From positions 25,786-89,785 of the forward strand of contig CAZDTZ010000001.1 in NCBI GenBank assembly GCA_964508535.1: 64,000 nt of DNA, read 5' to 3'. The notes beneath the pieces were generated by a model that saw only the letters and a list, made by a program, of their open reading frames with translations, ran no database searches and was not told where the DNA came from. The DNA is from an uncultured Candidatus Saccharibacteria bacterium. Lineage in GTDB: Bacteria; Patescibacteriota; Saccharimonadia; Saccharimonadales; UBA4665. Of the stretch, positions 11,275 through 61,501 are shown in pieces; the first letter of the stretch is position 1, and each line of letters opens with the position of its first letter. The position numbers and the translations under genes are program-made.

Positions 11275-11307
11275 GTAAAACAAAAACGCCCCTCCGAAGA
11301 AGGGCGT
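11275..11307 (-). terminator. Intrinsic terminator downstream of the RRM gene (possibly bidirectional)
   Basis: Minus strand reads ACGCCCTTC-TTCG-GAGGGGCGT followed by TTTTTGTTTT. Confidence 0.7.
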
Positions 11308-11342
11308 CATTTGATCCTCCGAAGAGGTTAGCGTGGAGCTAA

Positions 11343-11672: not shown

Positions 11673-11912
11673 TTCTAGCTTGTCCTTTTCTTTGCACCGA
11701 GGTAAGCTGGCGAGTAAATCATCCAGTTAACTGCTCCTCTAGCGACACGTTTTTAAATACCTTCTAGAACTGATCTGTAGCAGCTTATTTCTAGCTCCTT
11801 CATTATAGCATAGCTAATGGCAAACGTTGTCAATAAATCTCTATAGGTGGCTATTCCCCCAGTGTGTTGGGCGGTTTGCTATACTGGAGATTGGCTGAAA
11901 GGGGCTTTTGCG

Positions 11913-35504: not shown

Positions 35505-36737
35505 TTATTTGCCCGCGTTGGAGGAGATTTGTGTGATAGGCCCGAAGACGCTGACTGCGATAAGGCCGACCATACCACCAAGGACAACTATCATGACTGG
35601 CTCGATAATCGAGGACAGTGCGCCAACTGCGGTGTCGACTTCTTCTTCGTAAAATTCTGCAACTTTAAGGATGATTGTGTCGGTCTGTCCGGTTTCTTCG
35701 CCAACGGCCAACATTTGGGAGACGATTGGCGGGAAATGCTTGCTTTTTTGCAACTCCGCGGAAAGCTGGCTACCTGCTTGGATAGCTTTGGAGCAGCTGA
35801 TTAGTTCTTTTTCGATCACCGCGTTGCCTATGGCGCCTGCAGTTGTCTCCAGTGCTTCAACAATCGAGACACCGGCGCTCATCAGCGAGGCGAAAATGCG
35901 CGCAAACCGCGCGATCGCAGTTTTGGTAATAATCACTTTAATGACCGGGATTTTTAGCAGAAGTGAGTGCCACTTGTAGCGGCCTTTCTCTGTTTTGATA
36001 TAACGACGGAACAGGATAATAGCGATTGGCAGGCCAACAATCACCGGGAAAATAAAGCTTGGTTGTTTCATAGTATTACTTACAGAGAGTAGTGCTCTCG
36101 TGTAGATGGGTAATTTCGCGCTGCTGCTGAGCGAGGTAAGGATGGCGCCGATCTTCGGCACGATAAACGTCATAAGCACAAAGAAGGCCAAGGCCGTAAC
36201 GACACCGACGACGCTCGGATAGATCATTGCCGCGCGGATTTTGCCCTTAAGCGCGGAGTCTTTCTCCTGCTGGAAGGCGAGGCGGTTCAGAACGTCGTCG
36301 AGGATACCCCCAGCCTCACCTGCGCGCACCATGTTGACGTAGATGGTTGAAAAAGCCGCAGGGTGCTTGGCCATAGAATCACTCAGGTTTGCTCCACCCT
36401 CCACGTCGCTGGTTACTGTTTCGAGTATTTTTTGGAGGGCTACAGAATCACTTTGCTCCTTGAGAATCGTCAGCGCACGTAAGATCGGCACGCCGGCATT
36501 CACCATGGTGGCAAACTGGCGCGTAAAAATTACCAAATCTCTGGACTTGATACCGCTCATGCCCGGTATCTTGATGTTCATGCTCAGGCCGCCCTTGCCT
36601 TTGTCCTCTTTGACCATGATGGGCTGTAATTGCCTGGCGCGCAGAGACGACAAGGCAGCCACCCTGGTGCGAGCGCTAATGGTGCCTTTTTGGAGTTGGC
36701 CATTTTGGAGGCGCGCGGTAAATTTGAAATCTGGCAT
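35505..36737 (-). CDS. pilC: Type IV pilus platform protein (GspF/PilC family)
   Basis: 410 aa with duplicated T2SS-F domains and 3 TM helices. Confidence 0.9.
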   Translation of the reverse strand: MPDFKFTARLQNGQLQKGTISARTRVAALSSLRARQLQPIMVKEDKGKGGLSMNIKIPGMSGIKSRDLVIFTRQFATMVNAGVPILRALTILKEQSDSVALQKILETVTSDVEGGANLSDSMAKHPAAFSTIYVNMVRAGEAGGILDDVLNRLAFQQEKDSALKGKIRAAMIYPSVVGVVTALAFFVLMTFIVPKIGAILTSLSSSAKLPIYTRALLSVSNTMKQPSFIFPVIVGLPIAIILFRRYIKTEKGRYKWHSLLLKIPVIKVIITKTAIARFARIFASLMSAGVSIVEALETTAGAIGNAVIEKELISCSKAIQAGSQLSAELQKSKHFPPIVSQMLAVGEETGQTDTIILKVAEFYEEEVDTAVGALSSIIEPVMIVVLGGMVGLIAVSVFGPITQISSNAGK

Positions 36738-39447: not shown

Positions 39448-40146
39448 CTAACTCGTCAGTATCCAACGAATAATCTGCTCTTTGAGTTTACGATACTCGG
39501 CTTCTTCAAATTGCCGGTTGGCAATGCAAAAGCGTTTGCCACGCGTATTCGAGCAGAACATGCATTCGTACATGTCGCCACAGTCCTGGATAAACATGCA
39601 ATTGACGATTTTTGAGGACCAGGCGACAGAAAAACTATTCGAACAATGTTTGCTATCGTCCAGGCGTATACAAAAGGTTGAATTTCTTGACCGCTGGCAA
39701 GCGGCTACAAGCTCGCACTCCATAAGCCCGTCGCTAAACAAGATGTTTTTGCCCTTGTAGATATCTTGCGAGCGGTAGACGTTTTCGGAGCTGTAAATGT
39801 TATCGGATTCCAGGATGTTGAGAGACTCTATTTGCCGTTCGGTGGTGGTAAAATTTATCTCATTCCAGGCGCGTAACACATCATCCACTGACTGCAACGG
39901 CCAGTCTGTTGCCGACCAAGACTCATCTTGACCAAGCTTGCGGGCATTTTTGAGTGTGATGTACTTTGTAGGGTTGACCGACTGGCTCCAGGTTGTCTCG
40001 CCGGTGGTGGAGTCGCTGACTTCTACCGGCAGCGGCACGTCAAAAGCGTACTTTTGCATAAATTGCTTCAGATTATAAGGGTTTTGAAAGCCAAATACCT
40101 CACCGACAATCTTGTTGAGCGTCTGTTGGGCTAGATGTGGCGTCAT
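39448..40146 (-). CDS. Hypothetical protein with Cys-rich C-terminal half
   Basis: 232 aa with about 11 Cys in the last ~95 residues (CELVAAC .. CIRL .. CSNS .. CMFIQDC .. CMFC .. FC). ATGA overlap with the upstream ATPase gene. Confidence 0.6.
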   Translation of the reverse strand: MTPHLAQQTLNKIVGEVFGFQNPYNLKQFMQKYAFDVPLPVEVSDSTTGETTWSQSVNPTKYITLKNARKLGQDESWSATDWPLQSVDDVLRAWNEINFTTTERQIESLNILESDNIYSSENVYRSQDIYKGKNILFSDGLMECELVAACQRSRNSTFCIRLDDSKHCSNSFSVAWSSKIVNCMFIQDCGDMYECMFCSNTRGKRFCIANRQFEEAEYRKLKEQIIRWILTS

Positions 40147-42164
40147 GGAGTGTCCTTTCGTTTGTTGACGTTGCGGCGACTAGAGGAATGCGCTGAAAGC
40201 AGGTCTTTTATGCTGAAGCCTTTTGGCTGTGTGATATTTTGGTTGCTCCCGTCAGCCGCGTCGGTTTTGCCAGCTTGATGCTGACTAATCACAGGCACTG
40301 GTTCCGTCGCCCCCTCCACAAATTTAGCAGGCAGATTTTGCATTTGCGGATAGTGCGTAAGACGAATGTGATTAGCAGTTTCTGCCTCCACCGGCGCATC
40401 AACCGTTCGGGCCTTGACGCAGGGATTAATTTGTCCGTTGGCGGCCACCCGGATTAGGCACTCACGCGGATGCAGCGTGCTCAGCATGGAAACGCGTACC
40501 TGGGTTTCACTGTTGCCTTTTTTACGGGCGGCATCGGCGATTTCTTTGGGCAATTCCATATTGAGATTACCCTCTAGCAGACGAGCATCTTCCTCAGAAG
40601 TTTTAAAGACGTAATAATTGTATACGTTGGCAAAAATAGCAGCGCGCAAGTCTTTTTCTATCTGTCCAAAATATTGTTGGGTAAGTATAACCGACAAGTT
40701 AAACTTACGCGCCTCGGCCAAAATCGACGCCAGCGTCGGGTTTTGGACGATCGATACCTCGTCGATAATTAGGATAATCTTTTGGCCAAAAGCGCGGGCC
40801 TGAGCCAGTAAAAATAGCTGTTGGATAAGCAATCCAGCCACGGTTTTGGTGGTCTTTTCACCCATACTTACCTTGTTAAGTGAAAAAATCGTCAGGAAGT
40901 TATCCTGGATAGTGCGTGCCAGCGAGATGTCACCGCCCTTAGTTAGCCCCGGCTGTAGCTGTAGTTCGTCGATCAGCGATATGATCGGCAGTACCGATTC
41001 GTTGTAGTAGGTGGTGCGGATTTCATTAAAGTCACTCCCAAAGAACTGGACGATGTTTTGTGGCGCATAGCCGGTTACGTGGCCGATGACCTTAGCACGC
41101 AGCTCAGTGTCGGTTAGAAAACGCTTGAGCGTATCAAGTGACATGTTTTGTGCGATAAACAATATATACAGGCTGAACCGCAGCGTCCGATCTAGTCGTG
41201 CATTAAATTGGTCGCCCAGCAACGATTTGAAGAGCGTGGCAGTGAGTTCGGTGGCCGCAGAAATGTCGGGGGCGCTTTCGGCAAACAATTCGGTGCCCTC
41301 GCTGGTAAAGTTTACGATCTTCGTATCGGGGATATAGGCAAGATCATCAGCCAGCGCGGCGTGTGGGTCAACAATCACCACGCGGTAGTTCATCTTGAGC
41401 GCGCTGCGGTACAGACGATCGACCAACAGACTGATCAATTTCGATTTACCCGTGCCCGTCGCACCAATAATGAGCGAGTGCTTATCGAACTCATAATTAT
41501 GCAAGCCAAGATAATGGGGCTGCGCAAAATACGGGAAGGTGTCGATCTCAAACAGTGCATCGGCCTGGCGACCGGTTAACATGTGCAACGATTTCTCGAT
41601 GTTGAGGTACAGTGGTACCGTCTTTTTGAGGTAGCGGACATTGCCTGCGAAGTTGACTGCCAACAGATCTGCCGGAAAGGAAGTGACAAGTTTATCTGCC
41701 ACCGTAAATCGGCCGCCCGCGTCCTTAAAGTACAGCTTCATATGCCCCAACGATTTCTGCGTGCCCAGCCCGCGTACACTAAGCGTCACAAATTCCAGAT
41801 CCTTGGCCTTTTTAACGGCGTATTTTTCTTTTACGTCAAGGAGATTGCCGCCGGTCACAAATTGTACGAGATGTTCTCTGGCGTGAGGTGTTGGGAGGTC
41901 CATTGCGTCTTGGCCTGCTGGCTGCAACAATAGACCATCTATATTATTAGACAGCGTACTTATATCTTTGTCGCTTTGCACAAAGAAACGCGCGACGTTG
42001 TCGGCCAAGCTGACGGTAAGTTCAAACTTGCCAAGTAATCCGCCGTACTGCAACAAGGCCTTGTGAAATTTTGCCCAGTGCGCCGGTGTGAGTGTGTCGG
42101 TAAGAATATAAAGCTCGAAGGTATATCGCATAGTATCAAGATCCTGCCTACCCTGACGGTACAC
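40143..42164 (-). CDS. VirB4/VirD4/HerA-superfamily P-loop NTPase
   Basis: Walker A GATGTGKS, Walker B ILIIDEVS, and ARKFNLSVILTQQ (RK..n..tQ motif of T4SS-type ATPases). ~230-aa unassigned N-domain. An alternative ATG lies at 42131. Confidence 0.8.
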   Translation of the reverse strand: MYRQGRQDLDTMRYTFELYILTDTLTPAHWAKFHKALLQYGGLLGKFELTVSLADNVARFFVQSDKDISTLSNNIDGLLLQPAGQDAMDLPTPHAREHLVQFVTGGNLLDVKEKYAVKKAKDLEFVTLSVRGLGTQKSLGHMKLYFKDAGGRFTVADKLVTSFPADLLAVNFAGNVRYLKKTVPLYLNIEKSLHMLTGRQADALFEIDTFPYFAQPHYLGLHNYEFDKHSLIIGATGTGKSKLISLLVDRLYRSALKMNYRVVIVDPHAALADDLAYIPDTKIVNFTSEGTELFAESAPDISAATELTATLFKSLLGDQFNARLDRTLRFSLYILFIAQNMSLDTLKRFLTDTELRAKVIGHVTGYAPQNIVQFFGSDFNEIRTTYYNESVLPIISLIDELQLQPGLTKGGDISLARTIQDNFLTIFSLNKVSMGEKTTKTVAGLLIQQLFLLAQARAFGQKIILIIDEVSIVQNPTLASILAEARKFNLSVILTQQYFGQIEKDLRAAIFANVYNYYVFKTSEEDARLLEGNLNMELPKEIADAARKKGNSETQVRVSMLSTLHPRECLIRVAANGQINPCVKARTVDAPVEAETANHIRLTHYPQMQNLPAKFVEGATEPVPVISQHQAGKTDAADGSNQNITQPKGFSIKDLLSAHSSSRRNVNKRKDTP

Positions 42165-44788: not shown

Positions 44789-46438
44789 CTACAGTAACTC
44801 CTGTGGATTAATTATTAAGGCTGTCTTGCCGTCGTCCAAAATCGTCACTCCGCTAAAACCGCGGATAGTCTTTAGCACATCAGGTACAGGCTTGATAATA
44901 ATGTCGGCGCTCTCTAGCACCGCATCAACCGATAAGCCAATTTTCTCACTGCCCTCGCCAAGGACAACAGCTAGGATGTTTTTTGCTTGTGGCACGCCAG
45001 GCGCAACCGGCGTTGGATCGGAGCCGAGAAGCTTGGTGTTGAGCTTGATGAGTGGAATGTCCTGATCGTCTATTACGAACGTTTCTTGTCCGGCCAGTTT
45101 TTTAACCGCTGTTGTCGGGATATTGATAATCCGTTCAACTGCCAACGTCGGGATGACGAATTGTTTTTGGTCGATAGTAACTACCAACGCTTTGGCAATG
45201 GCGAGGGTGAGCGGCAATTTGATGATAAATGCCGTTCCTTGCCCAGTTTTTGACTCAACATTGATGACGCCGCCAAAGCTATCAACCATTTTTTTGATGG
45301 CGGTCAACCCTACGCCCCGCCCTGATATCTGCGTGACTGCGACACTAGTGGAAATGCCAGAGAACAGTGCGTCTTTGAGCAGCTTGCCGTCCGTTTCCCC
45401 CGGGTCTAGCCCGGCTTTCTGGGCTACTAGTTGCCAGTCAACGCCTTGGCCATCGTCGCGTACGGTTATTTGTGCGTAATCTTTTTGGCGGGCGGCCGAA
45501 AGCGTGATGACGCCCTTTTCTTTAATGCCGTGCGACACGGCATTGCGTAGCAAGTGGATGAGCGGTTCGTCCAGCCGGTCGACAATAGTGCGGTCAAGCT
45601 CAAGGTCGCTGCCCGTGATCACCAATTCGATTTGCTTGTTTTCTGTCCTGGCGAGGTCGCGCACCGCGCGTGGGAAATGGTCAAAGACCAAGCCAACGGG
45701 TACGGCCCGCGCCTTCATAATTTGGTATTGCAAGCTGGCGAGAATTTTTGCCGAGGCGTTAAAGTAGCTCTCGAGGTCGGCATTGTCGTCGGTAACGGTT
45801 GCGCTCACTCGTTTTAATTTTATTCTTTCTACGAGGAGGTTCTCTAGCAGGTTCATCATTTCGTCCAGGACCTCGACTTTTACGGAGATGGTGTTGACTG
45901 CGCTGCGCGTTGACTCGGGGGCGGCGACTGCCGCCGTTGAGGTGGGGGTAGCTGACTGCGCGTGCGTTTCAGCTGGTGGGGGAACGGCGCTTTCCTGGCT
46001 GGGATTTTTTGTCGCTGTCCCGTCTGCGTTGTGCTGGCTTTTACCCGCTCCTTCGGTTGTCACACCAGACAGTTGCTTGAGGGTTTCTATAGTTGCAGAC
46101 GAGTCCTCTTCGGTGGATTCTTTCTCGATGCGAGCAATAGACCGGGTGAGTGCGTCAAAGGCAGCAAACAGATGATCAGCAATCTCGCTCGTCAACTCTT
46201 TTCTGCCCTGTTTTATCTCATAAAAGATATCTTCGACAACGTGACACAAGTAGCCGGTACTTTGGTAGCCCATAGCTGCCGATTGGCTTTTAAGTGAGTG
46301 AGCGTTCCTGAAAATCTCTTCGATAGCATGCGCGTCGGTCGGATTTTTCTCGAGTACCAGCAAAGCTGCATTCAAGCTTTGGATGTATTCTTTGCTGGTC
46401 TGCACGTATAGCTCTAGATATTCTGAAAGGTCGTCCAT
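44789..46438 (-). CDS. cheA: Chemotaxis histidine kinase CheA
   Basis: Hpt HSLKSQSAAMG, HATPase (DDGQGVD, GRGVGL), and a C-terminal CheW-like domain. Confidence 0.9.
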   Translation of the reverse strand: MDDLSEYLELYVQTSKEYIQSLNAALLVLEKNPTDAHAIEEIFRNAHSLKSQSAAMGYQSTGYLCHVVEDIFYEIKQGRKELTSEIADHLFAAFDALTRSIARIEKESTEEDSSATIETLKQLSGVTTEGAGKSQHNADGTATKNPSQESAVPPPAETHAQSATPTSTAAVAAPESTRSAVNTISVKVEVLDEMMNLLENLLVERIKLKRVSATVTDDNADLESYFNASAKILASLQYQIMKARAVPVGLVFDHFPRAVRDLARTENKQIELVITGSDLELDRTIVDRLDEPLIHLLRNAVSHGIKEKGVITLSAARQKDYAQITVRDDGQGVDWQLVAQKAGLDPGETDGKLLKDALFSGISTSVAVTQISGRGVGLTAIKKMVDSFGGVINVESKTGQGTAFIIKLPLTLAIAKALVVTIDQKQFVIPTLAVERIINIPTTAVKKLAGQETFVIDDQDIPLIKLNTKLLGSDPTPVAPGVPQAKNILAVVLGEGSEKIGLSVDAVLESADIIIKPVPDVLKTIRGFSGVTILDDGKTALIINPQELL

Positions 46439-46439
46439 A

Positions 46440-47474
46440 TTATTGTAGTAACCTGCTTATTGCCTCAGGTATGGCCGCGAGCGGCATTACTTCGTCGGCC
46501 AAGCCCTTGTCTATCACCTCGCGGCCCATACCGTATACAGCACTGGTAGCTTCATCTTGGACGATCGTTGTCCCACCGGCTTCTTTTACTTGCAGCATGC
46601 CAGTTGAGCCGTCGGTGCCCATGCCAGTCAGAATGACGCCGATAGTTTTGCCTCCATAAACCTGAACGGCGGAGGACATGAGTTTGCTAATTGAGGGTGT
46701 CTCGATGTCGATTGTGTTTGGACGTACGTCAAAGGTGGCTTTGCCATGGCTATTTTTTACGGTTGTTGTCGTACTTCCCGCTGCAATGTATATCGTACCG
46801 GGCATAAGCGGCAGACCCTCCTTGGCTTGAGCGACGGCGACTGTGCAGGTTTTCTGTAGGCGGCCAACAAACAATTCGGTAAATTCTTTGGGCAAATGCT
46901 GTGCCACGACGACTGGACAGGGAAAATTTGAGGGTAGCTTTGGCAGCAAAAATTCTAAGGCAGCTGGGCCTCCAGTCGATGCGCCGATAACGACTATGCC
47001 ATCTGTTTTAACGTATTGCTGATTTTTGAGCGGCTGTATACTATCGCTGCGGGTTTTTGAGGTGTCAGCCATGGCTGCGGCCTTTACCTTTGTGCGCAGC
47101 ACATCCTTAACTTTGTCCATGTCCATGCTGAACGACCCCGAGGGCTTTACGATAAAATCTGCCGCTCCCAGGCTCAAGCATTCGAGGGTCATGTTTGCGC
47201 CTGGCTGTACGTAGCCAGAAACCATGACCACAGACGGGTGGTGTGCTTCACTGACAATTGCCTGTAGCGTCTCCACCCCATCCATAACAGGCATTTCAAC
47301 ATCCAGGGTGACTACATCCGGTCGGAGGAGCTTGATCTTTTGTAGCCCATCGACGCCGTCCTTAGCTTCGCCAACAACATCTATGTCAGCATCGGCTCGA
47401 AGGATGTCTCCAATAACTGTACGCATAAAAAAGCTGTCGTCGACAATTAATACGCGTATTTTTTTTGTGGTCAT
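46440..47474 (-). CDS. cheB: Chemotaxis methylesterase CheB (receiver plus esterase)
   Basis: IRVLIVDDS receiver domain; GASTGGP and HLP esterase motifs. The start is taken at the Met before TTKKIRV; the ORF-track start is 47570. Confidence 0.9.
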   Translation of the reverse strand: MTTKKIRVLIVDDSFFMRTVIGDILRADADIDVVGEAKDGVDGLQKIKLLRPDVVTLDVEMPVMDGVETLQAIVSEAHHPSVVMVSGYVQPGANMTLECLSLGAADFIVKPSGSFSMDMDKVKDVLRTKVKAAAMADTSKTRSDSIQPLKNQQYVKTDGIVVIGASTGGPAALEFLLPKLPSNFPCPVVVAQHLPKEFTELFVGRLQKTCTVAVAQAKEGLPLMPGTIYIAAGSTTTTVKNSHGKATFDVRPNTIDIETPSISKLMSSAVQVYGGKTIGVILTGMGTDGSTGMLQVKEAGGTTIVQDEATSAVYGMGREVIDKGLADEVMPLAAIPEAISRLLQ

Positions 47475-47481
47475 AGGAAAC

Positions 47482-47880
47482 CTAAGCGGTAGGTGCTGCC
47501 TCTGCCGGTGCTGCCGGTGCTGTGTCGGGGAAGAGCTTATTAAGTGAATCAATAACGAGTTTAGAGTCAAAAGGTTTTACGATGTAGTCCTTGGCTCCAA
47601 GCGATCTTGCTTGGTCGATGACGCCGTCCTGGCCCATGGACGACACGATTACCACCGACGGCGAGGCGAAGCCAATCTCTTTCAAAACGTCTATGCCGCT
47701 CTTGCCAGGCATAATGATGTCCAGTAGCACGAGATCTGGTTTGTCGGACTGACAGAGGGAGATGGCAGTATCGCCATTGTCTGCCTCGAGTACGGATGCC
47801 CCCACCCATTTGGACTGAGGGACTAGGTTTTTGAGGATAGTGCGCATGAACGCACTATCGTCTACGATTAAAATTTTCAT
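47482..47880 (-). CDS. cheY: Chemotaxis response regulator CheY
   Basis: [13 protein letters not shown] .. LVLLDIIMPGKSG .. YIVKPF. Confidence 0.9.
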   Translation of the reverse strand: MKILIVDDSAFMRTILKNLVPQSKWVGASVLEADNGDTAISLCQSDKPDLVLLDIIMPGKSGIDVLKEIGFASPSVVIVSSMGQDGVIDQARSLGAKDYIVKPFDSKLVIDSLNKLFPDTAPAAPAEAAPTA

Positions 47881-48434
47881 GATTGGCCTCCTTCGTTAGT
47901 TTGTGCTGGCTGAGCGGCATTTTGCGCCGCTTGTAGCTCGGTAATGTTGTTATCTGACAGTATTTTTTGCAGGTCCAAGATGAGCAGCATTCTTTCTGGG
48001 GCGTCAGCATGTACGTTGTCGGCCAGCAATATCACACCGCCCAGATATTCTGCTGATATCTTGCTCTTCACCGCCTCAGGCGTTGGCTTTATACTATCTG
48101 CTGGGATTTTTAAGACTTCTTTTACCTGGTCGACCAGCACACCAAACAAGACTTTTTGTTCGCTTTCGGCGATCATAATGTGTTGGCGGAGTTGCTCGTT
48201 TTCACGCTGTAAGTGAAATTTTTTTTCAAGGTCCAGCACCGCCAGTACTTTGCCTCGCAAGTTAGCTAGTCCCAATATGTAATCTGGTGCGCCAGGAACT
48301 GGAGTAATCTCGATGACCGGCGTAACCTCAGTAACCGACAAGATGGGTACTGCGTATTCGTCGTTGTCTAATACGAAGGCTACGAACTGGTCTAGCTGGA
48401 CGTGCTTCTGCGCGGTCTCATTGTTTGGGTTCAT
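47877..48434 (-). CDS. cheW: Chemotaxis coupling protein CheW
   Basis: [18 protein letters not shown] .. [15 protein letters not shown]. Confidence 0.9.
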
Positions 48435-50052
48435 CAGTTTGCCTCAGGTCGTTAGGCTCGTTAGAAGCAGCGTGCTCGGCGGCTAGCGCGTGCTGTTCGA
48501 TCTGGCGCGGTGTCGCAATTATGTCTAGTGTTGGCTTAGTGATATGACTCGGCATGGTTTCCGGTGCCGCTGTTGCGTGGTAGGCCGTGAGGTGATGAGC
48601 GGGTTTTACACTTGAGGGAACTTCGATTGGCGTCGATGAAAGGGGCTCCCTGCTTTTGCCACTAACTACTTTTTTGAGTTGGTCGGCCAGGCGTTGCAGA
48701 TCGGTAGATGCGGCCGCTACTTGTTGTGTTGCTGCCGAGGTTTGCTGCGTTGAAGCAGATAATTGTTGAGCTCCAGAAGCAGACTGTTCGGCGACCGATG
48801 CAATAGAATCCATTGTTCTGGCAACCTGGCTGATAACCGTTGATTGTTGATTAATGGCGCTTGCTACGTCACCAATCCTCAGTGACGACTTGCCGATGCT
48901 TTCAACAGTGATCGAGATATTACCGGCAATTTCTTTTACGATTTGTTGCACCTCACCTGCTGCTTTGGATGAAGAGTCGGCCAGTTTGCGAACTTCGTCA
49001 GCTACCACCGCAAAGCCCCGGCCCGCCTCGCCTGCTCTGGCTGCCTCGATAGCTGCGTTTAAGGCCAGTAGGTTAGTCTGCTCGGCCGTAGTGGTTACGA
49101 CTTCAACCATTTTGCTAATTTTTTCGGTTGATTCACCGGTTTGCTGGGCCAGCTTGGATGCCTGGGTTGTGTTGGCGCTTACGTCCTGGCTAGTAGTCGC
49201 CATTTGCCCGGCAGCCTGTGACATCTGGGTGAGCGCTTTTGAGATTTCTTCGGCTTGCTTCGACTGCTGGACGGCTCCGGCTGCCACTTGTTGTGCGATG
49301 GCGGCATTTTGTTGCGCCCCTGCCGAGGCCTGCTGAGTGGACGCAGAAAGTGCTAGGCTCAACTTGATGAGTTGCTCGACGGAATTTTTGATTGTGCTGG
49401 AGATCTGGCTGGCGCCCAACTTCATGAACCAGCCACTGGCTATACCCACTAGCAATGCCACTAACAGGCCTATGTATACAACTTTTTTAATGTTTGCAAA
49501 ATTATTATCAGACTGTGCAGCCGCTGCGGCAGTACTTTGTTGGTTGTAGTCGACTAATTTGGTTAGTGTTTGGGATGATTCGTCAAATAAAACATCGACC
49601 CGAGCGAGCATTTTAGAAACCTCTTGTGTCTTGTGCGCTTTGACGAGTGGCAAAATCTGCTGATGGACACTAGCGTATTCGGTCCATTGGGCGGCGAACG
49701 CTTGATACAGTTGTTGCTCTTTTGATGAGCTAACAAGCTGTTTATAAGCCGATTGGTCGTTGTTTATGGATGCCACCGCATCTTGCATGTTGCTTTCCAG
49801 GTCTTGTTGCTGGCCTGGGTCAGTGGCTTGTGCATAGCGTAATTCGTCGCTCGCAAGGTCGGCAATGTGCGTATTAATCTTACCAATGAGGATTGCGCTG
49901 GGCAGCCACTTGTTCTCAATCTCGCCCACTTTGTGGTTGGTACTATTGAGGGCAACAAGGCTAAACACCCCCTGAAAAATAGGAATTAACAACAACAAGC
50001 TGAGCCCCAGGAAAATTCTGCGCCCAATCGTCATATTTTTAAGCGAATTCAT
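48418..50052 (-). CDS. Methyl-accepting chemotaxis protein
   Basis: 2 TM helices flanking a helical ligand domain. Signalling hairpin [35 protein letters not shown]. Confidence 0.9.
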
Positions 50053-54037: not shown

Positions 54038-55225
54038 CTAGCGGATTGGCCTTTGGAGGTCAACGCCGTAGGAAAGGTTGGCGGCGTCAACAAACGTGTC
54101 CTTATCGCGGATGATGGCTTGAGCCGGTAACTGCTCGGTACGAGGACCGATATCCTTCATACGTTTGACTGCCGTACCGATTGCCAAAAATTCAATGACT
54201 CCGCCGCCCAAATCATAGATATATGTCTTTATGCCCAGTACGTCGTCGGCGCCAATGGCCTCGGCTTGCTGCTGGACTTTTAACAAAGACTGTTCGCGCG
54301 CGCCATAGATCAATTCTGAGAGTTCTTTAATCTCACCTTTTACAAAGTTGCGGAGCGCGGCTTTAATGCCTCCGGCCAGGCCGAGCGAATAGACGGATGT
54401 GCCAAGAATTAGTTTTAGTGGGGCGTACCCCAGCTTAGCAACGCTCCACATTTCCTCGGCCGTTAAGTCGCTCGTTGTTACGCCGCCGACGGTAGCGGCA
54501 ATGCCATCGAGTTTAGGGTTTTTGGACGCAGTGCCAAGCATGACCATCTCTTGTACGCCCGAAGCGCCAAGTGGCAGAATGCTTGTGCGGATGCCGACCA
54601 CACTATTAGCGCCTTTAGCCAAAGCCTCTTGCTGCAGACGCTGGAGGGCGAGGTTGCGCGTCGTATTAAAGATTTCACTGTACTGGGTGACTTCCCCCTT
54701 GGCGAGTTGCCGGAATGCACCTGCAATGCCCCTGCCGATACCGATAGAGTACGCCACGTTTCCAAATACAAAACTGACTGGCGTATAACCAACATCCCAT
54801 TGACAGAACAGTTCTTGGCCGTCGGCGGAGGTAGAAAAGCTGTCTTCGGGCTGTCCGTCCTCTCGGTGGATGGTCGAGCCAACCGTCAAAAATTCGACAT
54901 TCCCGGGGTGAAAAATGAGTTCGCTGGTGACGCCTGTGGCGCCCGAACCACCGGTTTGCTGGAGTTCTGCGTCGAACCGCTCTAGCGACAGCCGACGACC
55001 TTGGTAAATCATATTGGTGTACTGCGTAATCTCGCCACCGGCAATGGTACGAAGGCTCGAGCCAATACCACCCAAAAAGCCCATCGAGAAAACGCTATTG
55101 CCGACCAACAAATTACCGGGTGTGTAGCCGAGGAGGCTGACGCAATACATCTCATTTCCGGACAGACCGGAGAAGCGTGTATCTTTTGATGCTGTAGGAG
55201 TTGGTGTCGGAGTTTGTGGAGGCAT
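54038..55225 (-). CDS. Protein with three tandem YbjQ/UPF0145 (DUF74) domains
   Basis: Three repeats start at SGNEMYCVSLLGYTPGN, DGQELFCQWDVGYTPVS and TAEEMWSVAKLGYAPLK. Each continues with G(G/A)E(I/V)T/K .. GA(D/N)xV(L/V)GI, as in YbjQ. Confidence 0.75.
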   Translation of the reverse strand: MPPQTPTPTPTASKDTRFSGLSGNEMYCVSLLGYTPGNLLVGNSVFSMGFLGGIGSSLRTIAGGEITQYTNMIYQGRRLSLERFDAELQQTGGSGATGVTSELIFHPGNVEFLTVGSTIHREDGQPEDSFSTSADGQELFCQWDVGYTPVSFVFGNVAYSIGIGRGIAGAFRQLAKGEVTQYSEIFNTTRNLALQRLQQEALAKGANSVVGIRTSILPLGASGVQEMVMLGTASKNPKLDGIAATVGGVTTSDLTAEEMWSVAKLGYAPLKLILGTSVYSLGLAGGIKAALRNFVKGEIKELSELIYGAREQSLLKVQQQAEAIGADDVLGIKTYIYDLGGGVIEFLAIGTAVKRMKDIGPRTEQLPAQAIIRDKDTFVDAANLSYGVDLQRPIR

Positions 55226-55271: not shown

Positions 55272-55706
55272 TTAGGACTTTGCTTGCAAGATTGAGAAGC
55301 GGTTGCCCTCGGTGTCCATTGCCGAGATCCATAAGCCAACGCCGGGGATCATCTGTGGCTCCATGGTGTGCTCGCCTTTTTCGCTGAGGCCGCCGAGGAT
55401 TTTTCCGCCCGCTGCTTCTACGGCTTTCATGGCTTCCTGGACGTCGTCGACAGAGACAACCACAGACGGAGCCTGGCTCAGCGGGTCGTCAGTTTTTTGG
55501 TAAAACCCACCGTTGATCGCCCCTTTCGTTTGGACCATGCCCTTTTCATCGGTTTCGGCCGTGTGTGCTACCACATAGTTGCCCATGCCAGGCCCCATCT
55601 GCTGGGTTTTCCAGCCAAAGGCGGTTTCGTAAAATTTGACCATGCGGGCTCGGTCTTTGTACCCCATTTCGAAATGCACGACTGGATTCATTTTGCTCAT
55701 AAACAC
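55272..55706 (-). CDS. VOC/glyoxalase-family protein
   Basis: VVHFEMGYKDRARMVKFYETAFGW pattern; 144 aa. Confidence 0.8.
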   Translation of the reverse strand: MFMSKMNPVVHFEMGYKDRARMVKFYETAFGWKTQQMGPGMGNYVVAHTAETDEKGMVQTKGAINGGFYQKTDDPLSQAPSVVVSVDDVQEAMKAVEAAGGKILGGLSEKGEHTMEPQMIPGVGLWISAMDTEGNRFSILQAKS

Positions 55707-55767
55707 CCCTCTTTTAAATTCACATTATCTTTTTATAATACAGCACTTTCGTGACCATGCTTATGCA

Positions 55768-55796
55768 TTGACAACAAGTTATAATATCTTTATAAT
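55768..55796 (+). promoter_or_regulatory. Consensus sigma70 promoter TTGACA-17-TATAAT, 7 nt before the antitoxin ATG (likely leaderless mRNA)
   Basis: TTGACA 55768-55773, TATAAT 55791-55796, ATG 55804; no SD. Confidence 0.55.
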
Positions 55797-55803
55797 TAGC
55801 CAT

Positions 55804-56022
55804 ATGATTGAAACGACTCAAAAACTTATACAAATCGGCTCAAGCGAAGGCGTGACTTTGTCCAAAAAAGACATCGCACGGCTGGGCGCAAAGCGTGGAG
55901 ATACGTTAAAGATACAGGTTGAGCTGGTCAAAAAACCTGGCAAGCATGAAGCCTTGCTCCACGAGTACGACCTATTTGTCGAGAAGTATGGCCAGACTTT
56001 AAAAAATCTTGCTGACCGATGA
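55804..56022 (+). CDS. AbrB/SpoVT-type antitoxin of the Doc module
   Basis: 72 aa; IQIGSSEGVTLSKKDIARLG; 4-nt overlap with doc. Confidence 0.75.
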   Translation: MIETTQKLIQIGSSEGVTLSKKDIARLGAKRGDTLKIQVELVKKPGKHEALLHEYDLFVEKYGQTLKNLADR

Positions 56023-56402
56023 GCCTACTCTATCTTAGTGTAGAGGAAATATTACGCCTGCACTTCCAAATTATTGAAGATTTTGGCGGTTCGCACGGCG
56101 TGCGTGACGAAGGTCGCTTAAAGTCTGTTGTCGAGGCGCCAAGGCAGCAAGTCTTTGGCGAAGAACAATACCCAACACTTTACGAAAAGGCAGCAGTGTA
56201 TTTGCGTAACATCATTGGCGACCATCCTTTCAGCGACGGTAATAAGCGAACTGCAGTAACTATTTGCGGGATATTTTTGGCTCGTAACAGTAAGGGTCTT
56301 ATTGCTGCCCCGCAAGATCTGGAAGATTTTGCCGTAAAAGTAGCGACAGATCATCTGGGCGTCGCTGAAATTGCCGCCTGGCTGGAAGACCACACGAGAT
56401 AA
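56019..56402 (+). CDS. doc: Fic/Doc family death-on-curing toxin
   Basis: Fic motif HPFSDGNKRTA. Confidence 0.9.
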   Translation: MSLLYLSVEEILRLHFQIIEDFGGSHGVRDEGRLKSVVEAPRQQVFGEEQYPTLYEKAAVYLRNIIGDHPFSDGNKRTAVTICGIFLARNSKGLIAAPQDLEDFAVKVATDHLGVAEIAAWLEDHTR

Positions 56403-56424: not shown

Positions 56425-56967
56425 ATGTTCGCATATCTCGGTCTTATTCTTGTTGGCATAACATGGCTCGCAGGGGCCTTTATGCTCACTAAGTGGCGCG
56501 GTGAAAATCGGCCGACTATTAGCCGGCACGCATCCAGCACCAAAGGCGCGTATTGGTTATTCCTGGCCTTGCTGGTTGGCGGAGGCTCGGTTTTTTATGT
56601 GTGGCTTGTGGATTGGTTTGCACCCCATTTGCAGCTCGGCACTGTATTTAAATCGGTGCTGACATTGGTCATACTTTGCCAAATCGTAACTGCCGTGGTG
56701 CCGGATATTGGCGAAAGGCGGAAACTCGTGCACCACCTGGCGGCTTCTATAATGTGCGTGTTGTACATACCGTTGGCCACCCTAATACTCACCTCTTCAC
56801 GTTTATCACTATTGGCCCGCATCGTTGTTGTTGTGGCCGCCGCTTACATGGTTGTGGCATTGGTATGGGTGGTGATACTCAACAGGAATAGAGACCGGTT
56901 TCTGCTTTTCCAAACGCTGTATGTGATGATTTTCCAGTCGGCCATACTTACGGCAGCGTATTTGTAG
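56425..56967 (+). CDS. Membrane protein (about 5 TM helices), unknown function
   Basis: 180-aa hydrophobic ORF. Confidence 0.55.
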   Translation: MFAYLGLILVGITWLAGAFMLTKWRGENRPTISRHASSTKGAYWLFLALLVGGGSVFYVWLVDWFAPHLQLGTVFKSVLTLVILCQIVTAVVPDIGERRKLVHHLAASIMCVLYIPLATLILTSSRLSLLARIVVVVAAAYMVVALVWVVILNRNRDRFLLFQTLYVMIFQSAILTAAYL

Positions 56968-56999
56968 CTGCCCTGCCTGCTGGCTTTTCGCCTCACTAT

Positions 57000-57326
57000 G
57001 TGAGTTTAGACGTGAATGTCTACGAGCCTCACGACACATTTCCAACGCATATCGACAGAGGAATGGCGAACGATGTAGCGGCCATAACGCTACGGGGCCC
57101 TGGCGCAACTTTTATGCATGTCAAAAGGAGCGCAAACCTAGGCGGGATGCCTGAAGGCGACCAAATACTCCACCAATGGGAGCGAGTGCCGGGCGACGCC
57201 GTATTCATTCGCAACCATCCAGACGCGCGCGATGACATGTATCGGCTTCCACCACACGCTGTCGAGAATGGTGACGAGCAGCGAGTATCTCTCCAGGTTC
57301 AAGTCTCTTACGACTACCCACATTAG
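57000..57326 (+). CDS. Minimal 2OG-Fe(II) oxygenase-like protein
   Basis: 108 aa, GTG start. HxD (THID), a distal His 68 aa later (PPHAV), and RxS 9 aa after it (RVS). Confidence 0.45.
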   Translation: MSLDVNVYEPHDTFPTHIDRGMANDVAAITLRGPGATFMHVKRSANLGGMPEGDQILHQWERVPGDAVFIRNHPDARDDMYRLPPHAVENGDEQRVSLQVQVSYDYPH

Positions 57327-57448
57327 AAAGAAGCGCACGTGAGCCAGCAATAGGACAAGACATGCTGGCCCCGAATTGCTATATATGCTGGATGGCGCGA
57401 GGCTAACTCAGTTGCTCAGTCATTCCGGCATTGCTATTATGCTTATGC

Positions 57449-59074
57449 ATGAAAATAAATTCCAAAACAAGCCCCAAGAAGTTACTCAACACGAGTAAAG
57501 TGGTGCAGCCCTTCAAGCGAAAGGCCTACCCAGAGCTTTGTGCGCACGAATTATTAACACGGCAGGCTAAAAAGACCCCTGACGCCATCGCCATTATTGA
57601 TGGCGGCAAGACCATGACGTTTCGCGAGCTGGACGCCAAAACTGACCGGTTAGCCGCGGCGCTACAACAAGAAGGAGTCGGTCCCGAAGTTGTCGTCGGG
57701 TGTTATCTTTCGCGGTCTTCGGCAGTTGTACTCTGCATGCTTTCTATCTTGAAAGCCGGCGGCGCTTATTTGCTATTGGACTCGCAACTTCCTGCTATGC
57801 GTCTGGCATTTATGATCTCCGATGCAGCACCCCGTTTGATACTGGCCGATATCCCTTTTCCAGATGATATAGAGCGTCCGGGAGTCCCAATACATGATCC
57901 ACAAACATTGCGACAACGCATTAAGGGTGTCGTGTCACCACTGCGGAAAGAAGTAAAACCGGATAATGCTGCCTATGTTGCCTACACTTCTGGTTCGACG
58001 GGGCAGCCCAAAGGGGTTATTATCACTCATCGCTCCACGGTGAACCACACCTGTTCAGTTAAAGAGATATTTAAGCTCGTACCTTCTGATCGCGTACCGC
58101 TCATGGCACCGATAGCGTTTGACGTGGTTACGGAGGAGGTTGTGCCGCCGCTGCTGATTGGTGCAACGCTTATTGTTTCCAAGGCCAGCCACACCGACAT
58201 GGCCGAATTTACCAACGAAATAGTCGCCGAACGCTACACCATCCTGAATATCCCAACGCCGATGTGGCATACCTGGGTTGAGTATTTGGCGACCAATCAC
58301 ATTGCAATTCCACCTTCGCTACGGCTCGTGCTGGCGGCAAGCGAAAAGATTTTGACGAAGGTCTTTATGGTATGGAAGCAACTTGAGAACGCCGAGAAGG
58401 TGCGATGGGTGGCGGCATATGGAACCACCGAAACAACGGTTACGTCTACTTTTTATCTTACGGCGTGGGATGACGACCTCAGCAATGAGCCAAATATGCC
58501 GGTTGGTTTACCGATTTCCAATACAGCACTCTATATTCTTGATGAAAAACGTCAGCCAGTGCCCGATTTTGCCGTCGGGGAAATATATATTGCTGGCGAT
58601 GGGGTGGCGCGCGGCTACCTAAATTTGCCAGACAAAACCAAGGCGGTGTTTTTGCCTGATCCATTTTCGGCTGAACCCGGAGCACGAATGTACAAGACTG
58701 GCGATCAAGGTCGGCTGTTGCCAAGTGGTGTTTTTGCCTGTTTAGGTCGTAAGGATTACCAAGTGAAGGTCAATGGTTTGCGCATAGAATTGGGCGAAGT
58801 GGAGACGATACTATCGCATTGTCCAGGTGTACGAGAGAGCGTCGTTGTGGTTCGGCAACTAGACGATTTCGAAGAAAGTAGGCAGCTGGTTGCATTTTAT
58901 ACTACCAATGCAAGGAAAAAGGTAACGCCCGCTGAGCTCAAGGTTTTTGCGTCCTCTCGTTTGCACCCGCAAATGGTTCCCAGCGAATTTTGCTGTTTGC
59001 CTGAATTCCCTCTAACCGTTAACGAAAAAGTCGACCGAAAAATGTTAGAAAGCCAAGCCAATGCCGGAAACTGA
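57449..59074 (+). CDS. Stand-alone adenylation enzyme (NRPS A-domain-like, no carrier domain)
   Basis: A3 YVAYTSGSTGQPKGV, A4 FDVVTEE, A7 YGTTE, A8 YKTGDQGR..GRKDYQVKVNGLRIELGEVE, A10 NEKVDRK. No Ser-phosphopantetheine motif. Confidence 0.85.
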   Translation: MKINSKTSPKKLLNTSKVVQPFKRKAYPELCAHELLTRQAKKTPDAIAIIDGGKTMTFRELDAKTDRLAAALQQEGVGPEVVVGCYLSRSSAVVLCMLSILKAGGAYLLLDSQLPAMRLAFMISDAAPRLILADIPFPDDIERPGVPIHDPQTLRQRIKGVVSPLRKEVKPDNAAYVAYTSGSTGQPKGVIITHRSTVNHTCSVKEIFKLVPSDRVPLMAPIAFDVVTEEVVPPLLIGATLIVSKASHTDMAEFTNEIVAERYTILNIPTPMWHTWVEYLATNHIAIPPSLRLVLAASEKILTKVFMVWKQLENAEKVRWVAAYGTTETTVTSTFYLTAWDDDLSNEPNMPVGLPISNTALYILDEKRQPVPDFAVGEIYIAGDGVARGYLNLPDKTKAVFLPDPFSAEPGARMYKTGDQGRLLPSGVFACLGRKDYQVKVNGLRIELGEVETILSHCPGVRESVVVVRQLDDFEESRQLVAFYTTNARKKVTPAELKVFASSRLHPQMVPSEFCCLPEFPLTVNEKVDRKMLESQANAGN

Positions 59075-60584
59075 GAGTACCTTGCCAATAACGTTCGTCC
59101 ACACGCCCATGCCCGTGGTTGCCGTGCCTCAGGCCAGGAATTTTTGGGAGGCTTTTGACAGGCAATATTATCCTGCTCACCCTGGTCTGCACCCCCTCGA
59201 AGGAAATATTATGTGGGAGCTTCCATATTGGGCTCACGAACTCGGCGGCGTACTCGACCAAGCAGGTCTTCCAAATACCGGGATGCTCAATTTGTACGGT
59301 AACGCTGCTACGCTCACCGGCAACAATAGTATTGATCCCGACCACGTGCGGAGAGAGCTGAAAAAACAAGGCGAGGCCGCAGCATATTTATTTTCTCCAA
59401 TGACGGCCAACTATCGACTGGCTTTGTCGATCGCTGATGTCATTAAAGACGAGTTTCCAGATAGCAAAACTATTTTTGGCGGCGTTATGGCTACGCCTCT
59501 ACACGAACAGACTGCTCGTCATCAAAGCGTCGATTATGTAGTACGTCACGCCGGCGAAGTAGCACTTCCTAAGCTCCTCAGGGCAATCGAACGGGGCGGA
59601 AAAGACATCGAGGACATCGGTAATCTTACGTATGTAGACGAAAACGGAGAGTTGCGGGTTAGTCCCAAGCTTTACCCTGAAATACCACCGGACAGATTGC
59701 CTATGCCCAAAATTGACCTTTTCGACCCTGAAGTTGGCAGTGGTCTACGATATTTGCGCGTCGTGCACGGCTTGGGCTGTGTTTCGAAATGTTCATTTTG
59801 CACTATCCGCACTATTGGGCGTCTCCCCTCATTTTTCCCCGACAAACGCGTGATAGACGAGATTGATGCTTTCCGCAACCGTTACAGCGCGCCACTTGTT
59901 GAGGCAGGCTACCCTCCACACAACATTTATTTTGGCGACGAAACGTTTACGGAAGATACCGACCAAACAGTTGCCCTTTTGCAAGAACTCGAAAGACGAG
60001 GCGGCTACGGCTTTGATGCCCAGACGAGGCTAGACCGTTTACAAGATCCCAAAATTGTTGAGGCGCTTGCTAAGAGCGGCTGTCGTTGGCTGGAGATCGG
60101 CCTAGAAACAGTGTTACTGGATTCACGCAATAGGCATAAACGCGGTCGGCGACTAAAAGAGGACCCCCAGACCAAAACGCTCAAGGCCTTACGAGATGCT
60201 GGCATTGCAACGTGTGCCTTCACCATAACGGGCATGTCAGGCCAAACAGTGAACGACATGCGTGCGAACGTAGAGGGAGTTGCTCAGTTAATAGACGACG
60301 ATCTATTAAACGCAACTTACTCTGCAGTATTTGTCCCCTACCCCGGGAGTGAGTTATACGACCACCCCCAGCGTTTCGGTATGGATATTCTTCACGAAGA
60401 TTATAGTAAATACCATGAGGATCTACCGCCTGTTTTCACGACAGAGCAAGCTCCTGATCCCGATGCGGTTCACCAGGTGTATCTGGACGGGCTTGGCACT
60501 TTGGCACAGGCCATGACGCGGTCAAAGCATGCCGCGAAAGGCCGTGGCCCATACGGTGGTAGCTGGGATCAAGGCCATTCATAA
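59061..60584 (+). CDS. Radical SAM enzyme with N-terminal B12-binding-like domain
   Basis: CVSKCSFC (CxxxCxxC) cluster preceded by a Rossmann-like region. 14-nt overlap with the adenylation gene. Confidence 0.85.
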   Translation: MPETESTLPITFVHTPMPVVAVPQARNFWEAFDRQYYPAHPGLHPLEGNIMWELPYWAHELGGVLDQAGLPNTGMLNLYGNAATLTGNNSIDPDHVRRELKKQGEAAAYLFSPMTANYRLALSIADVIKDEFPDSKTIFGGVMATPLHEQTARHQSVDYVVRHAGEVALPKLLRAIERGGKDIEDIGNLTYVDENGELRVSPKLYPEIPPDRLPMPKIDLFDPEVGSGLRYLRVVHGLGCVSKCSFCTIRTIGRLPSFFPDKRVIDEIDAFRNRYSAPLVEAGYPPHNIYFGDETFTEDTDQTVALLQELERRGGYGFDAQTRLDRLQDPKIVEALAKSGCRWLEIGLETVLLDSRNRHKRGRRLKEDPQTKTLKALRDAGIATCAFTITGMSGQTVNDMRANVEGVAQLIDDDLLNATYSAVFVPYPGSELYDHPQRFGMDILHEDYSKYHEDLPPVFTTEQAPDPDAVHQVYLDGLGTLAQAMTRSKHAAKGRGPYGGSWDQGHS

Positions 60585-60616
60585 AGCAAAGTGTTTTCTA
60601 TCGGTGATACATGAGG

Positions 60617-61501
60617 CTAAAGCAACATCACGACGACACCAATAACTGTTGCGCTCGCACCAAACAGAGCCGTTCGGCTGAGGTCTTCCTTGAAGTGTTT
60701 AAGCGCTAAGCAGATAGTAACAATAGGGTATGTAGCGCTTAGGGCCACGACCAATGATCCTGCTGCTCGGTCATGCATAAAGCCGACATTTAACAGTAAG
60801 GTGGCAGTAAGTTGCACCAAACCAGCGCCGAGGATGTACGGATTTCGTAACGATACAACCATTTGCTTCAGATTAGCCTGCTCGGTGTGGCGATTTAGCC
60901 AGAGCGCTGCCAAGCTGGTTAGGGACAAAACGATCAATTCTACGAGTAAGACAGGCCGCCAGCCTGCATGTGCCACGGCGTAATCGATGAACGGATAGCC
61001 TACGCCCCACGCCAAAGATGCCAAAAGGGCAAATAGTGGGCCACGACCTATGTGGCGGCCGGGCTTCCAGGCCGAAAATAGCCCTGTGGCGGTCATTACT
61101 CCGCAGACCACCATGATAATTCCGGCTAGCTGACGCTCGGAGAGGGACGCGTGAAAAAAAGCCAACCCAATACTGACTGTCACAAGTGGATAGGCCGACC
61201 CCAGCGGGCTAGCTAGGCTGACGGGGCCGATAGCAAAAGCTTTGTATAAGAAAACAAGACCAAGCCCTACCAACGCTGACCCGCCGATAGCGGCCATGGC
61301 GACCATGCCTGGTAGTTGCGGCACAGTATGTACCGCCAGAATATACCACACACCAAAACCGGCTAAACCCAGAACCTGTACGCAGCAGGCTGCAGTAATT
61401 GGACCCAGTTTTTTCGAGCCAGCAGCGCCCAAAAAGTCAGCAAACCCATAAGCGATAGCTGCGCCTAGGCCTAGCAATATAGCAACGGATTGTTCACTCA
61501 T
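60617..61501 (-). CDS. EamA/DMT-family transporter
   Basis: 294 aa; 10 TM helices in two EamA repeats. Confidence 0.85.
   Translation of the reverse strand: MSEQSVAILLGLGAAIAYGFADFLGAAGSKKLGPITAACCVQVLGLAGFGVWYILAVHTVPQLPGMVAMAAIGGSALVGLGLVFLYKAFAIGPVSLASPLGSAYPLVTVSIGLAFFHASLSERQLAGIIMVVCGVMTATGLFSAWKPGRHIGRGPLFALLASLAWGVGYPFIDYAVAHAGWRPVLLVELIVLSLTSLAALWLNRHTEQANLKQMVVSLRNPYILGAGLVQLTATLLLNVGFMHDRAAGSLVVALSATYPIVTICLALKHFKEDLSRTALFGASATVIGVVVMLL

Follow-up and report, generated by a model that had tools for sequence, protein, structure and literature searches.

Stand-alone adenylation (A) enzymes of the nonribosomal peptide synthetase (NRPS) type, such as DltA, CytC1, and streptothricin ORF19, are single A domains of ~500–550 residues with the full A1–A10 core, the Asp that binds the α-amino group, and the A10 Lys, and they have no fused thiolation (T), condensation (C), or thioesterase (TE) domain. 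Their systems include the carriers DltC, CytC2, and ORF18. ORF19 handles β-lysine and makes amide bonds directly. The class-B radical S-adenosylmethionine (SAM) enzymes (rSAMs) MgmA, TsrM, CysS, TokK/ThnK, OxsB, and AprD4 combine an N-terminal Rossmann domain of the cobalamin (B12) type with a barrel that carries CxxxCxxC. Permeases of the drug/metabolite transporter (DMT) family, such as EamA/YdeD, RhtA, YddG, and the Rickettsia SAM importer, have two EamA repeats. The 64-kb stretch of DNA analyzed here (contig CAZDTZ010000001.1, positions 25,786 to 89,785; hereafter the window) encodes all three kinds of protein in one compact block: a stand-alone A enzyme with the features listed above, a class-B rSAM, and a two-repeat EamA permease of ~294 residues. 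Unlike DltA, CytC1, and ORF19, the A enzyme has neither a nearby carrier nor another NRPS gene beside it, and its conserved partner is the permease. The rSAM shares only 16–18% identity with the enzymes named above and belongs to a separate family located in NRPS clusters and amino acid cassettes, and unlike EamA/YdeD, RhtA, and YddG, the permease scores far below cutoff against the NCBIfam equivalogs. The parts belong to known superfamilies (NRPS A domain, class-B rSAM, DMT permease), and both enzyme subfamilies are uncharacterized.

The four open reading frames (ORFs) that a sequence-only reading of this region had placed in the block were recovered at the same positions (Table 1). The A gene ends with the TGA at 59072–59074 and the rSAM gene begins at the ATG at 59061, giving a 14-nt overlap. 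The database gene call for the rSAM starts 50 residues shorter; however, the amino terminus that follows the ATG at 59061 (ITFVHTPMP...) is conserved across 28 homologues, and therefore the overlap that the sequence-only reading described is real. The stop codons of the rSAM and EamA genes are 32 nt apart. Related genomic loci or contigs (L-numbers) and homologous proteins (P-numbers) were compared with the window. The closest genome match for the rSAM is L009, a Candidatus Saccharimonadales metagenome-assembled genome, in which the A enzyme (86% amino acid identity, from residue 1), rSAM (74%), and EamA permease (75%) are arranged with the same 14-nt overlap and a convergent EamA gene. L005 is the same organism as L009 and its EamA is also 75% identical. 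The DNA similarity between the window and L009 (73%) spans exactly 57432–61501 and ends on both sides, where the flanking genes are unrelated. A third lineage, L068, has the A gene (75%) followed by the rSAM gene (65%). The A–rSAM pair is thus conserved in relatives, accompanied by EamA in L009 and L005.

Across the three genes, the window and L009 differ at 0.08–0.16 of nonsynonymous sites (pN) and at 0.65–0.77 of synonymous sites (pS), the latter saturated; the rSAM values are 0.157 and 0.77. The corresponding dN/dS is at most about 0.1 per gene, with ~0.04 for the A gene and ~0.12 for EamA. Because the block is conserved and pN is far below pS, window positions 57431–61501 are a three-gene module under strong purifying selection. 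The A enzyme does not group with acyl or aryl ligases, the rSAM is not a housekeeping enzyme, and the pair is conserved, three points on which the sequence-only reading had staked itself. Promoter, terminator, and repeat scans around the module gave counts at chance level, and the repeat scan found no flanking repeats of the mobile-element kind. An additional conserved gene upstream of the A gene was considered (a hydrolase in L068, ORFs in L009) and set aside; none is common to the loci.

Table 1. Coordinates of the module and of other features in the 64-kb window.
Feature	Position in window	Strand	Remarks
Stand-alone NRPS-type A enzyme, 547 aa	57431–59074	+	module
Class-B (B12-binding-domain) rSAM, 507 aa	59061–60584	+	module
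EamA/DMT-family permease, 294 aa	60617–61501	-	module; convergent with the rSAM gene
2-Oxoglutarate (2OG)-oxygenase-fold relic (predicted)	56967–57326	+	adjoins the module; ORF with GTG start 57000–57326, 108 aa
Fic/DOC-family protein	56019–56402		upstream of the module; Pfam Fic 70.6 bits
bo3-type quinol oxidase COX1	2109–4211		bo3-type quinol oxidase operon
COX2 with COX_ARM	4208–5131		bo3-type quinol oxidase operon
UbiA-family heme O synthase	6182–7054		with the bo3-type quinol oxidase operon
PilM	25775–26854		type IV pilus
PilC	35505–36737		type IV pilus
PilB	36751–38571		type IV pilus
VirD4/TrwB-like coupling ATPase	40143–42164
CheA	44789–46438		chemosensory set
CheB	46440–47570		chemosensory set
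Methyl-accepting chemotaxis protein (MCP)	48418–50052		chemosensory set

The A gene starts at a TTG, with alternative starts at ATG 57449 and GTG 57503. Its product scores 389.4 bits against the TIGR01733 amino acid adenylation model (cutoff 317.4) and matches Pfam AMP-binding (256 bits) and AMP-binding_C (32.5 bits), and its best Protein Data Bank (PDB) matches are the NRPS A domains of LgrA, ApnA, and Txo2. These data identify a genuine NRPS-type amino acid A domain and not an acyl-CoA or aryl ligase. Motifs A3–A10, including FDV and the A10 Lys, were all found by regular expression, and the protein ends 12 residues past A10 and has no T, C, or TE domain, as the sequence-only reading had described. 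Neither the protein nor its surroundings provide a carrier, condensation, or release domain, and the gene therefore does not encode a complete NRPS module. The score against the DltA equivalog is 239.5 bits (cutoff 559.85), and the gene has no MBOAT or DltC neighbors. The nearest relatives form ~75 clusters of A-only proteins of 495–575 residues at 44–56% identity, drawn from metagenomes and from genomes labeled Verrucomicrobiae, Mycobacterium/Mycolicibacterium, Nocardia, and Ca. Saccharimonas. Next, at ~40% identity, come proteins with A-T and A-T-TE architecture. A metagenome scan with the A protein returned distant NRPS matches only.

Ten-residue specificity codes were read by alignment to the GrsA-PheA sequence; a register check of that sequence gave the textbook code DAWTIAAICK. 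The stand-alone A family has the near-invariant code D[MV]ENIGAVTK, with M or V at position 2, V or I at position 8, and rarely T9S. The window enzyme reads DVENLAAVTK, a code common to all four sequences of the rSAM-linked clade. By the established Stachelhaus rules, Asp235 in the predicted pocket indicates an α-amino acid substrate, and Glu239 and Asn278 suggest a cationic or polar side chain, as in the pockets for basic amino acids. The near-invariance of the code suggests that the family has one substrate, a basic amino acid. The first six residues of the code resemble the Stachelhaus "Orn(2)" code DMENLGLINK, which is a lead rather than a test. The strings D[MV]EN[IL][GA]AVTK were not found in the searchable literature. 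When the window enzyme is compared with P0124–P0196, the change from IG to LA in the pocket (positions 299/301) correlates with the presence of the rSAM; relatives without the rSAM have the family code or a near variant of it. This change may reflect adaptation to the modified substrate.

The EamA ORF scores 81.6 bits against Pfam EamA (cutoff 28.2) and has two repeats, which bears out the convergent DMT/EamA transporter of the sequence-only reading. The A and EamA genes are also paired outside the rSAM-linked loci. In L059, L070/71, and L072/73, an A orthologue at 55–56% identity is directly followed by an EamA gene 38–41% identical to that of the window, and the A and EamA reading frames share 8 nt in L059 and L070/71. 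These permeases form an EamA subfamily defined by adjacency to a stand-alone A gene. Comparison of L059 with the syntenic L070 reveals a six-gene insertion upstream of the A–EamA pair (L059 2326–7883) that encodes four unannotated proteins of ~250 residues, a 442-residue variant radical SAM protein, and a UbiE-like methyltransferase. Therefore, A–EamA cores gained radical SAM partners at least twice. The ancestral unit was presumably A plus EamA, and a B12-type rSAM from a family that otherwise serves NRPS clusters would have been inserted between them in this lineage. No description of either the A–EamA pairing or the A–rSAM–EamA module was found in the literature.

The rSAM matches PF04055 (58.4 bits, cutoff 29.5) and, at its amino terminus, the B12-binding family PF02310 (34.7 bits, cutoff 32.1). 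The CxxxCxxC motif is CVSKCSFC at residues 240–247, and C240, C244, and C247 are invariant in 28 homologues, which confirms the B12-type radical SAM assignment made from the sequence. The AlphaFold2 model (pLDDT 91) was compared with solved structures using Foldseek. AprD4 was the top match, and MgmA, TsrM, CysS, OxsB, and TokK were the other closest structures, with E-values of 1e-15 to 1e-19 and TM scores of 0.54–0.69. Most of these (MgmA, TsrM, CysS, TokK) are B12-dependent methyltransferases. No NCBIfam model scored above its cutoff, the best being ApyD (95.4 against 750). Housekeeping rSAMs were considered and rejected: BchE scored 59 bits against a cutoff of 481 and HpnJ 60.5 against 578, HemN and MiaB were not among the NCBIfam matches, and MiaB was a distant fold match only. 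Scores and fold thus place the enzyme outside the HemN, MiaB, and BchE housekeeping families. These comparisons place the rSAM in the class-B architecture with no close characterized relative, in what appears to be an unnamed family of ~480–510 residues.

Many homologues of the rSAM, at 42–51% identity, come from Streptomyces, Micromonospora, Catenulispora, Acidobacteriota, Myxococcota, Burkholderia, and Pseudomonas, and an NRPS A domain lies within 8 kb at 37 of the 51 rSAM loci. The longest-ORF caller mis-calls strands in high-GC loci, and statements about neighbors therefore use tblastn, Pfam, and called-gene tables. Twenty actinobacterial loci share the rSAM, a 272-residue protein, and a second B12-rSAM of 622 residues, together with TauD, MbtH, and NRPS genes. 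The code of the A domain in these clusters is DGGDIGCIDK. It is a basic-type code (compare the Orn code DVGEIGSIDK) and was found beside the rSAM in at least 12 loci. Other basic-type codes beside the rSAM are DVEEVGIVTK, DVEDIGVVTK, DVENVGGVTK, and DAADxGxxDK, and the remaining ones are of the Asn/Asp type. An arginase-family gene is a neighbor in L052/L024, the Pseudomonas loci have a DUF3865 diiron oxidase, a pyridoxal phosphate (PLP)-dependent Orn/DAP/Arg decarboxylase, EamA, and a VOC protein, in L008 TauD occurs together with an aminotransferase, and a CmlA-like hydroxylase is a further neighbor. These codes and neighbors together point to a basic amino acid as the likely substrate class of the rSAM. 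A neighbor-joining tree groups the window with L009, P0002, and P0003 in a deep clade that is sister to all other members, and therefore no recent donor of the rSAM by horizontal transfer can be named.

Two settings of this family are described separately. The actinobacterial sub-operon lies at about 8001–12340 within NRPS clusters (L002–L004, L010–L013, L016–L019, L028–L030, L036–L038, L040, L041, L045, L053, L055) and consists of the rSAM (~490 residues), the 272-residue protein, the B12-rSAM (~622 residues), and sometimes Methyltransf_21. The 272-residue protein has no Pfam or NCBIfam match, and no description of the sub-operon as a biosynthetic gene cluster family was found in the literature. 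The second setting is the conjugative IncP megaplasmid pPUV-6 of P. aeruginosa (L074, NZ_MT732184.1), where a homologue 44% identical to the window rSAM lies in a cassette at 5517–11819. This cassette encodes a divergent YcaQ/AlkZ-like crosslink-repair DNA glycosylase, the rSAM, DUF3865, a PLP decarboxylase-like protein, EamA, and VOC, and similar cassettes are present in L027 and L035. AlkZ-type glycosylases are self-resistance genes for DNA-alkylating natural products. Because of this role, the pPUV-6 cassette may, by analogy, encode a genotoxin derived from a basic amino acid.

These data are consistent with the following scheme. The substrate that the A enzyme would bind and turn into the aminoacyl-AMP is proposed to be an α-amino acid whose long side chain is polar or basic, similar to ornithine, lysine, or arginine. 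Most likely acting as a carrier-independent ligase, the enzyme would then transfer this aminoacyl moiety straight to a nucleophile, either a small molecule or part of the envelope. Direct transfer is proposed because the protein has no carrier domain and none is encoded nearby in four independent genomic contexts. The translationally coupled class-B rSAM would use radical C–H chemistry, most likely C-methylation, to tailor either this amino acid or what the ligation yields, and the permease would bring the substrate in or the product out. The reading as a whole, a functional module for carrier-free activation and rSAM tailoring of a basic amino acid with transport by EamA, is assigned a probability of roughly 45%. 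The domain identities, block conservation, purifying selection, and co-occurrence patterns are observed; the substrate class, methylation, carrier independence, transport direction, and acceptor are deduced from them. The sequence-only reading had proposed a pathway that activates an amino acid and modifies it by methylation or rearrangement and by hydroxylation. Activation within a module is supported, methylation or rearrangement is reasonable and unproven, and hydroxylation is not supported. The scheme has an analogy, and an analogy only, in pyrrolysine biosynthesis, where the radical SAM enzyme PylB converts Lys to 3-methylornithine and an ATP-dependent ligase, PylC, joins the product to an amine. 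PylB was a distant structural match of the window rSAM (rank 26 in Foldseek). However, PylB has no B12 domain, PylC is an ATP-grasp ligase and not an ANL/A-domain enzyme, the window has no PylD, and the homology is limited to the rSAM barrel. In function the module also recalls streptothricin ORF19, and it belongs to neither system. Our literature searches on B12-rSAMs acting on Arg, Orn, or Lys, and on NRPS or rSAM clusters in candidate phyla radiation (CPR) bacteria, returned no relevant characterized system, and a 2026 review of B12-rSAM enzymes lists none.

Several observations weigh against this scheme. AprD4, the top structural match, is a dehydratase that works independently of B12, and the PF02310 match exceeds its cutoff only slightly, so cobalamin use and methyl transfer are not assured. 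CPR bacteria, which are not known to synthesize cobalamin, would need to obtain it by scavenging. The more distant A relatives in L060 and L062 have neither an EamA nor an rSAM neighbor. Neither enzyme family has a characterized member, and the substrate and reaction are deduced from neighbors and the pocket code. The view is also limited to 64 kb, and genes for a carrier, a phosphopantetheinyl transferase (PPTase), an enzyme that forms the acceptor, or B12 uptake could be located in other parts of the genome.

The last point leads to the main competing explanation, in which the A enzyme resembles DltA or CytC1 and charges a free carrier encoded elsewhere with its PPTase. The rSAM would then act on the carrier-bound aminoacyl thioester, and the product would be an aminoacylated envelope polymer or a short NRPS-like compound. 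Well-studied NRPS-type A domains of this size all normally use a carrier, pantetheine-linked substrates are those used by the structural neighbors CysS and TokK, the inspected sequence covers only 64 kb of the genome, and DltA models match the A enzyme over its full length, although far below cutoff (248 against 476 bits). Nevertheless, crude tblastn and motif searches detected no carrier protein (T domain or acyl carrier protein, ACP), PPTase, or MbtH in the 64-kb window, in accord with the sequence-only reading, which had seen no carrier. No PP-binding gene lies within ±8 kb of the A gene in L059, L070, or L072, and these neighborhoods, like the window, yielded neither a PP-binding protein nor a PPTase, C domain, or MbtH. 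The permease is the sole conserved partner. To our knowledge, Saccharimonadia generally have no fatty acid synthesis with its ACP and AcpS, which we also count against a carrier encoded elsewhere. We consider charging of a distant carrier unlikely, but it is the strongest of the alternatives.

A less probable alternative is salvage or detoxification, in which EamA would import or expel a basic amino acid or antimetabolite derived from the host, and the A enzyme and rSAM would neutralize it or convert it for use by the epibiont itself instead of producing a secreted natural product. The lineage is reduced and host-dependent, the A–EamA pair is conserved without other biosynthetic genes, and the DMT family includes importers, such as the Rickettsia SAM transporter. 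In addition, the Mycolicibacterium A orthologue adjoins a DinB/MST-like transferase. However, adenylation is an unusual route to salvage or detoxify amino acids, and elsewhere the rSAM family goes with biosynthetic NRPS clusters.

Two further readings are contradicted by the tests and are rejected, as was that of a housekeeping rSAM. Maturation of a ribosomally synthesized peptide that is post-translationally modified (RiPP), with the rSAM acting on a precursor peptide and the A enzyme unrelated or accessory, is very improbable: the top NCBIfam match, ApyD, is a RiPP rSAM, but its score is 95 bits against a cutoff of 750, the intergenic gaps in the block are only 32–154 nt with no conserved small ORF (the sequence-only reading had likewise seen no precursor-peptide ORF), and the family neighbors are NRPS and amino acid enzymes. 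It is equally improbable that the block is a functionless, decaying leftover of a horizontally acquired NRPS cluster; the adjoining oxygenase gene is truncated, a toxin–antitoxin-like pair lies just upstream, and the flanks differ among genomes, but the three ORFs are intact with all catalytic motifs, nonsynonymous change is far below the saturated synonymous change, at least three diverged lineages retain the module, and the deep-branching rSAM clade does not fall within a donor group.

The oxygenase gene requires separate treatment. The 108-residue ORF has H17-x-D19, H73/H86, and R95-x-S97, and it has no Pfam, NCBIfam, or PDB sequence match. An exhaustive HMMER search identified six homologues (P0242–P0247) of 205–215 residues at 46–59% identity, and they align to the ORF only through their residues ~95–210. 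The homology begins at 56967, the base right after the stop codon of the upstream membrane-protein gene. There is an in-frame stop at 56889–56891, and the amino-terminal half (~95 residues) is absent in every frame. The AlphaFold2 model of the full-length homologue P0242 (pLDDT 91) matches Ofd2, ALKBH6, prolyl hydroxylases (P4H, PHD2), and PolD with E ~1e-6, and like these enzymes it has a double-stranded β-helix (DSBH) with HxD...H. Unlike Ofd2, ALKBH6, and PolD, the window copy is without the amino-terminal ~95 residues; it keeps the triad residues in a carboxy-terminal half only and is not a complete DSBH. No homologue of the ORF was found in L009, L068, or any of the 50 rSAM loci, and it is not linked to the module elsewhere. 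The ORF is a 5′-truncated relic from an uncharacterized family of ~210 residues; it keeps the DSBH core and lies outside the module. The motif spacing and fold that led the sequence-only reading to a mini 2OG oxygenase are therefore upheld by the P0242 model, but membership in the pathway is not. The hydroxylation step has no support because the ORF is truncated and absent from the related loci.

The window PilB is 72–83% identical to proteins labeled Patescibacteria group or Candidatus Saccharimonadales. Because of this identity, and because the nearest cassette is in L009, the host is assigned to an undescribed Saccharimonadales (Patescibacteria/CPR) lineage, a sequence-based placement that rests on one marker plus the L009 link. 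The sequence-only reading of a sparse genome agrees with placement in this reduced lineage. Ten window proteins were singletons when clustered at 90% identity, and therefore the host has no close named relative. Scans of the 64-kb window for tRNAs and Rfam families gave no matches.

Other features of the window are as follows. Positions 2109–7054 carry genes for aerobic respiration within a Saccharimonadales genome, and in 25775–50052 type IV pilus genes are interspersed with the Che cluster and the coupling ATPase. Class I ribonucleotide reductase and Nramp are also encoded. The 395-residue protein at 54038–55225 consists of three tandem YbjQ_1 ("putative heavy-metal-binding") domains, an unusual triplication. 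An amidinotransferase/DDAH-fold protein (PF19420, 41.6 bits) is encoded at 15248–16123; by sequence it is possibly arginine-deiminase-like, and if so it would supply citrulline or ornithine, which would matter for the ornithine-like substrate proposed here. Immediately upstream of the module, a small ORF with an AbrB/SpoVT-like appearance ends at 56022 and overlaps the Fic/DOC gene by 4 nt; it has no Pfam match at 1e-5. Together (55636–56402), the two probably form a Phd-Doc-type toxin–antitoxin pair.

CPR/Patescibacteria are considered to have almost no specialized metabolism or cofactor-heavy enzymes, and a conserved, selected module of an NRPS-type A enzyme and a B12-type rSAM is unexpected in such a genome. 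With neither a carrier nor a condensation domain, the module is likely to be missed by the usual rules for cluster detection. Two orphan families are defined by this work. One comprises ~75 clusters of stand-alone A enzymes with a single near-invariant code, and those closer relatives that were inspected are paired with EamA. The other, a widespread class-B rSAM family, is associated with basic amino acid building blocks where it occurs in the NRPS clusters of Streptomyces, Micromonospora, and Acidobacteriota, and it is also present on the P. aeruginosa megaplasmid. Characterizing a single member would provide annotation for hundreds of genes and could uncover both a novel non-proteinogenic amino acid and a way of ligation that needs no carrier. 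A more specific proposal, tentative and on present evidence rather unlikely, is a new carrier-protein-independent pathway in Saccharimonadales and relatives. An A enzyme coupled to a DMT permease would ligate a basic amino acid to an acceptor, the amino acid would here first be C-methylated or rearranged by the new class-B rSAM family, and the product would be a small molecule or an envelope modification in the epibiont–host interaction. If true, no CPR bacterium would have been assigned B12/rSAM-plus-NRPS-type chemistry before, and the large orphan rSAM family of actinobacterial, acidobacterial, and Pseudomonas clusters would gain a function.

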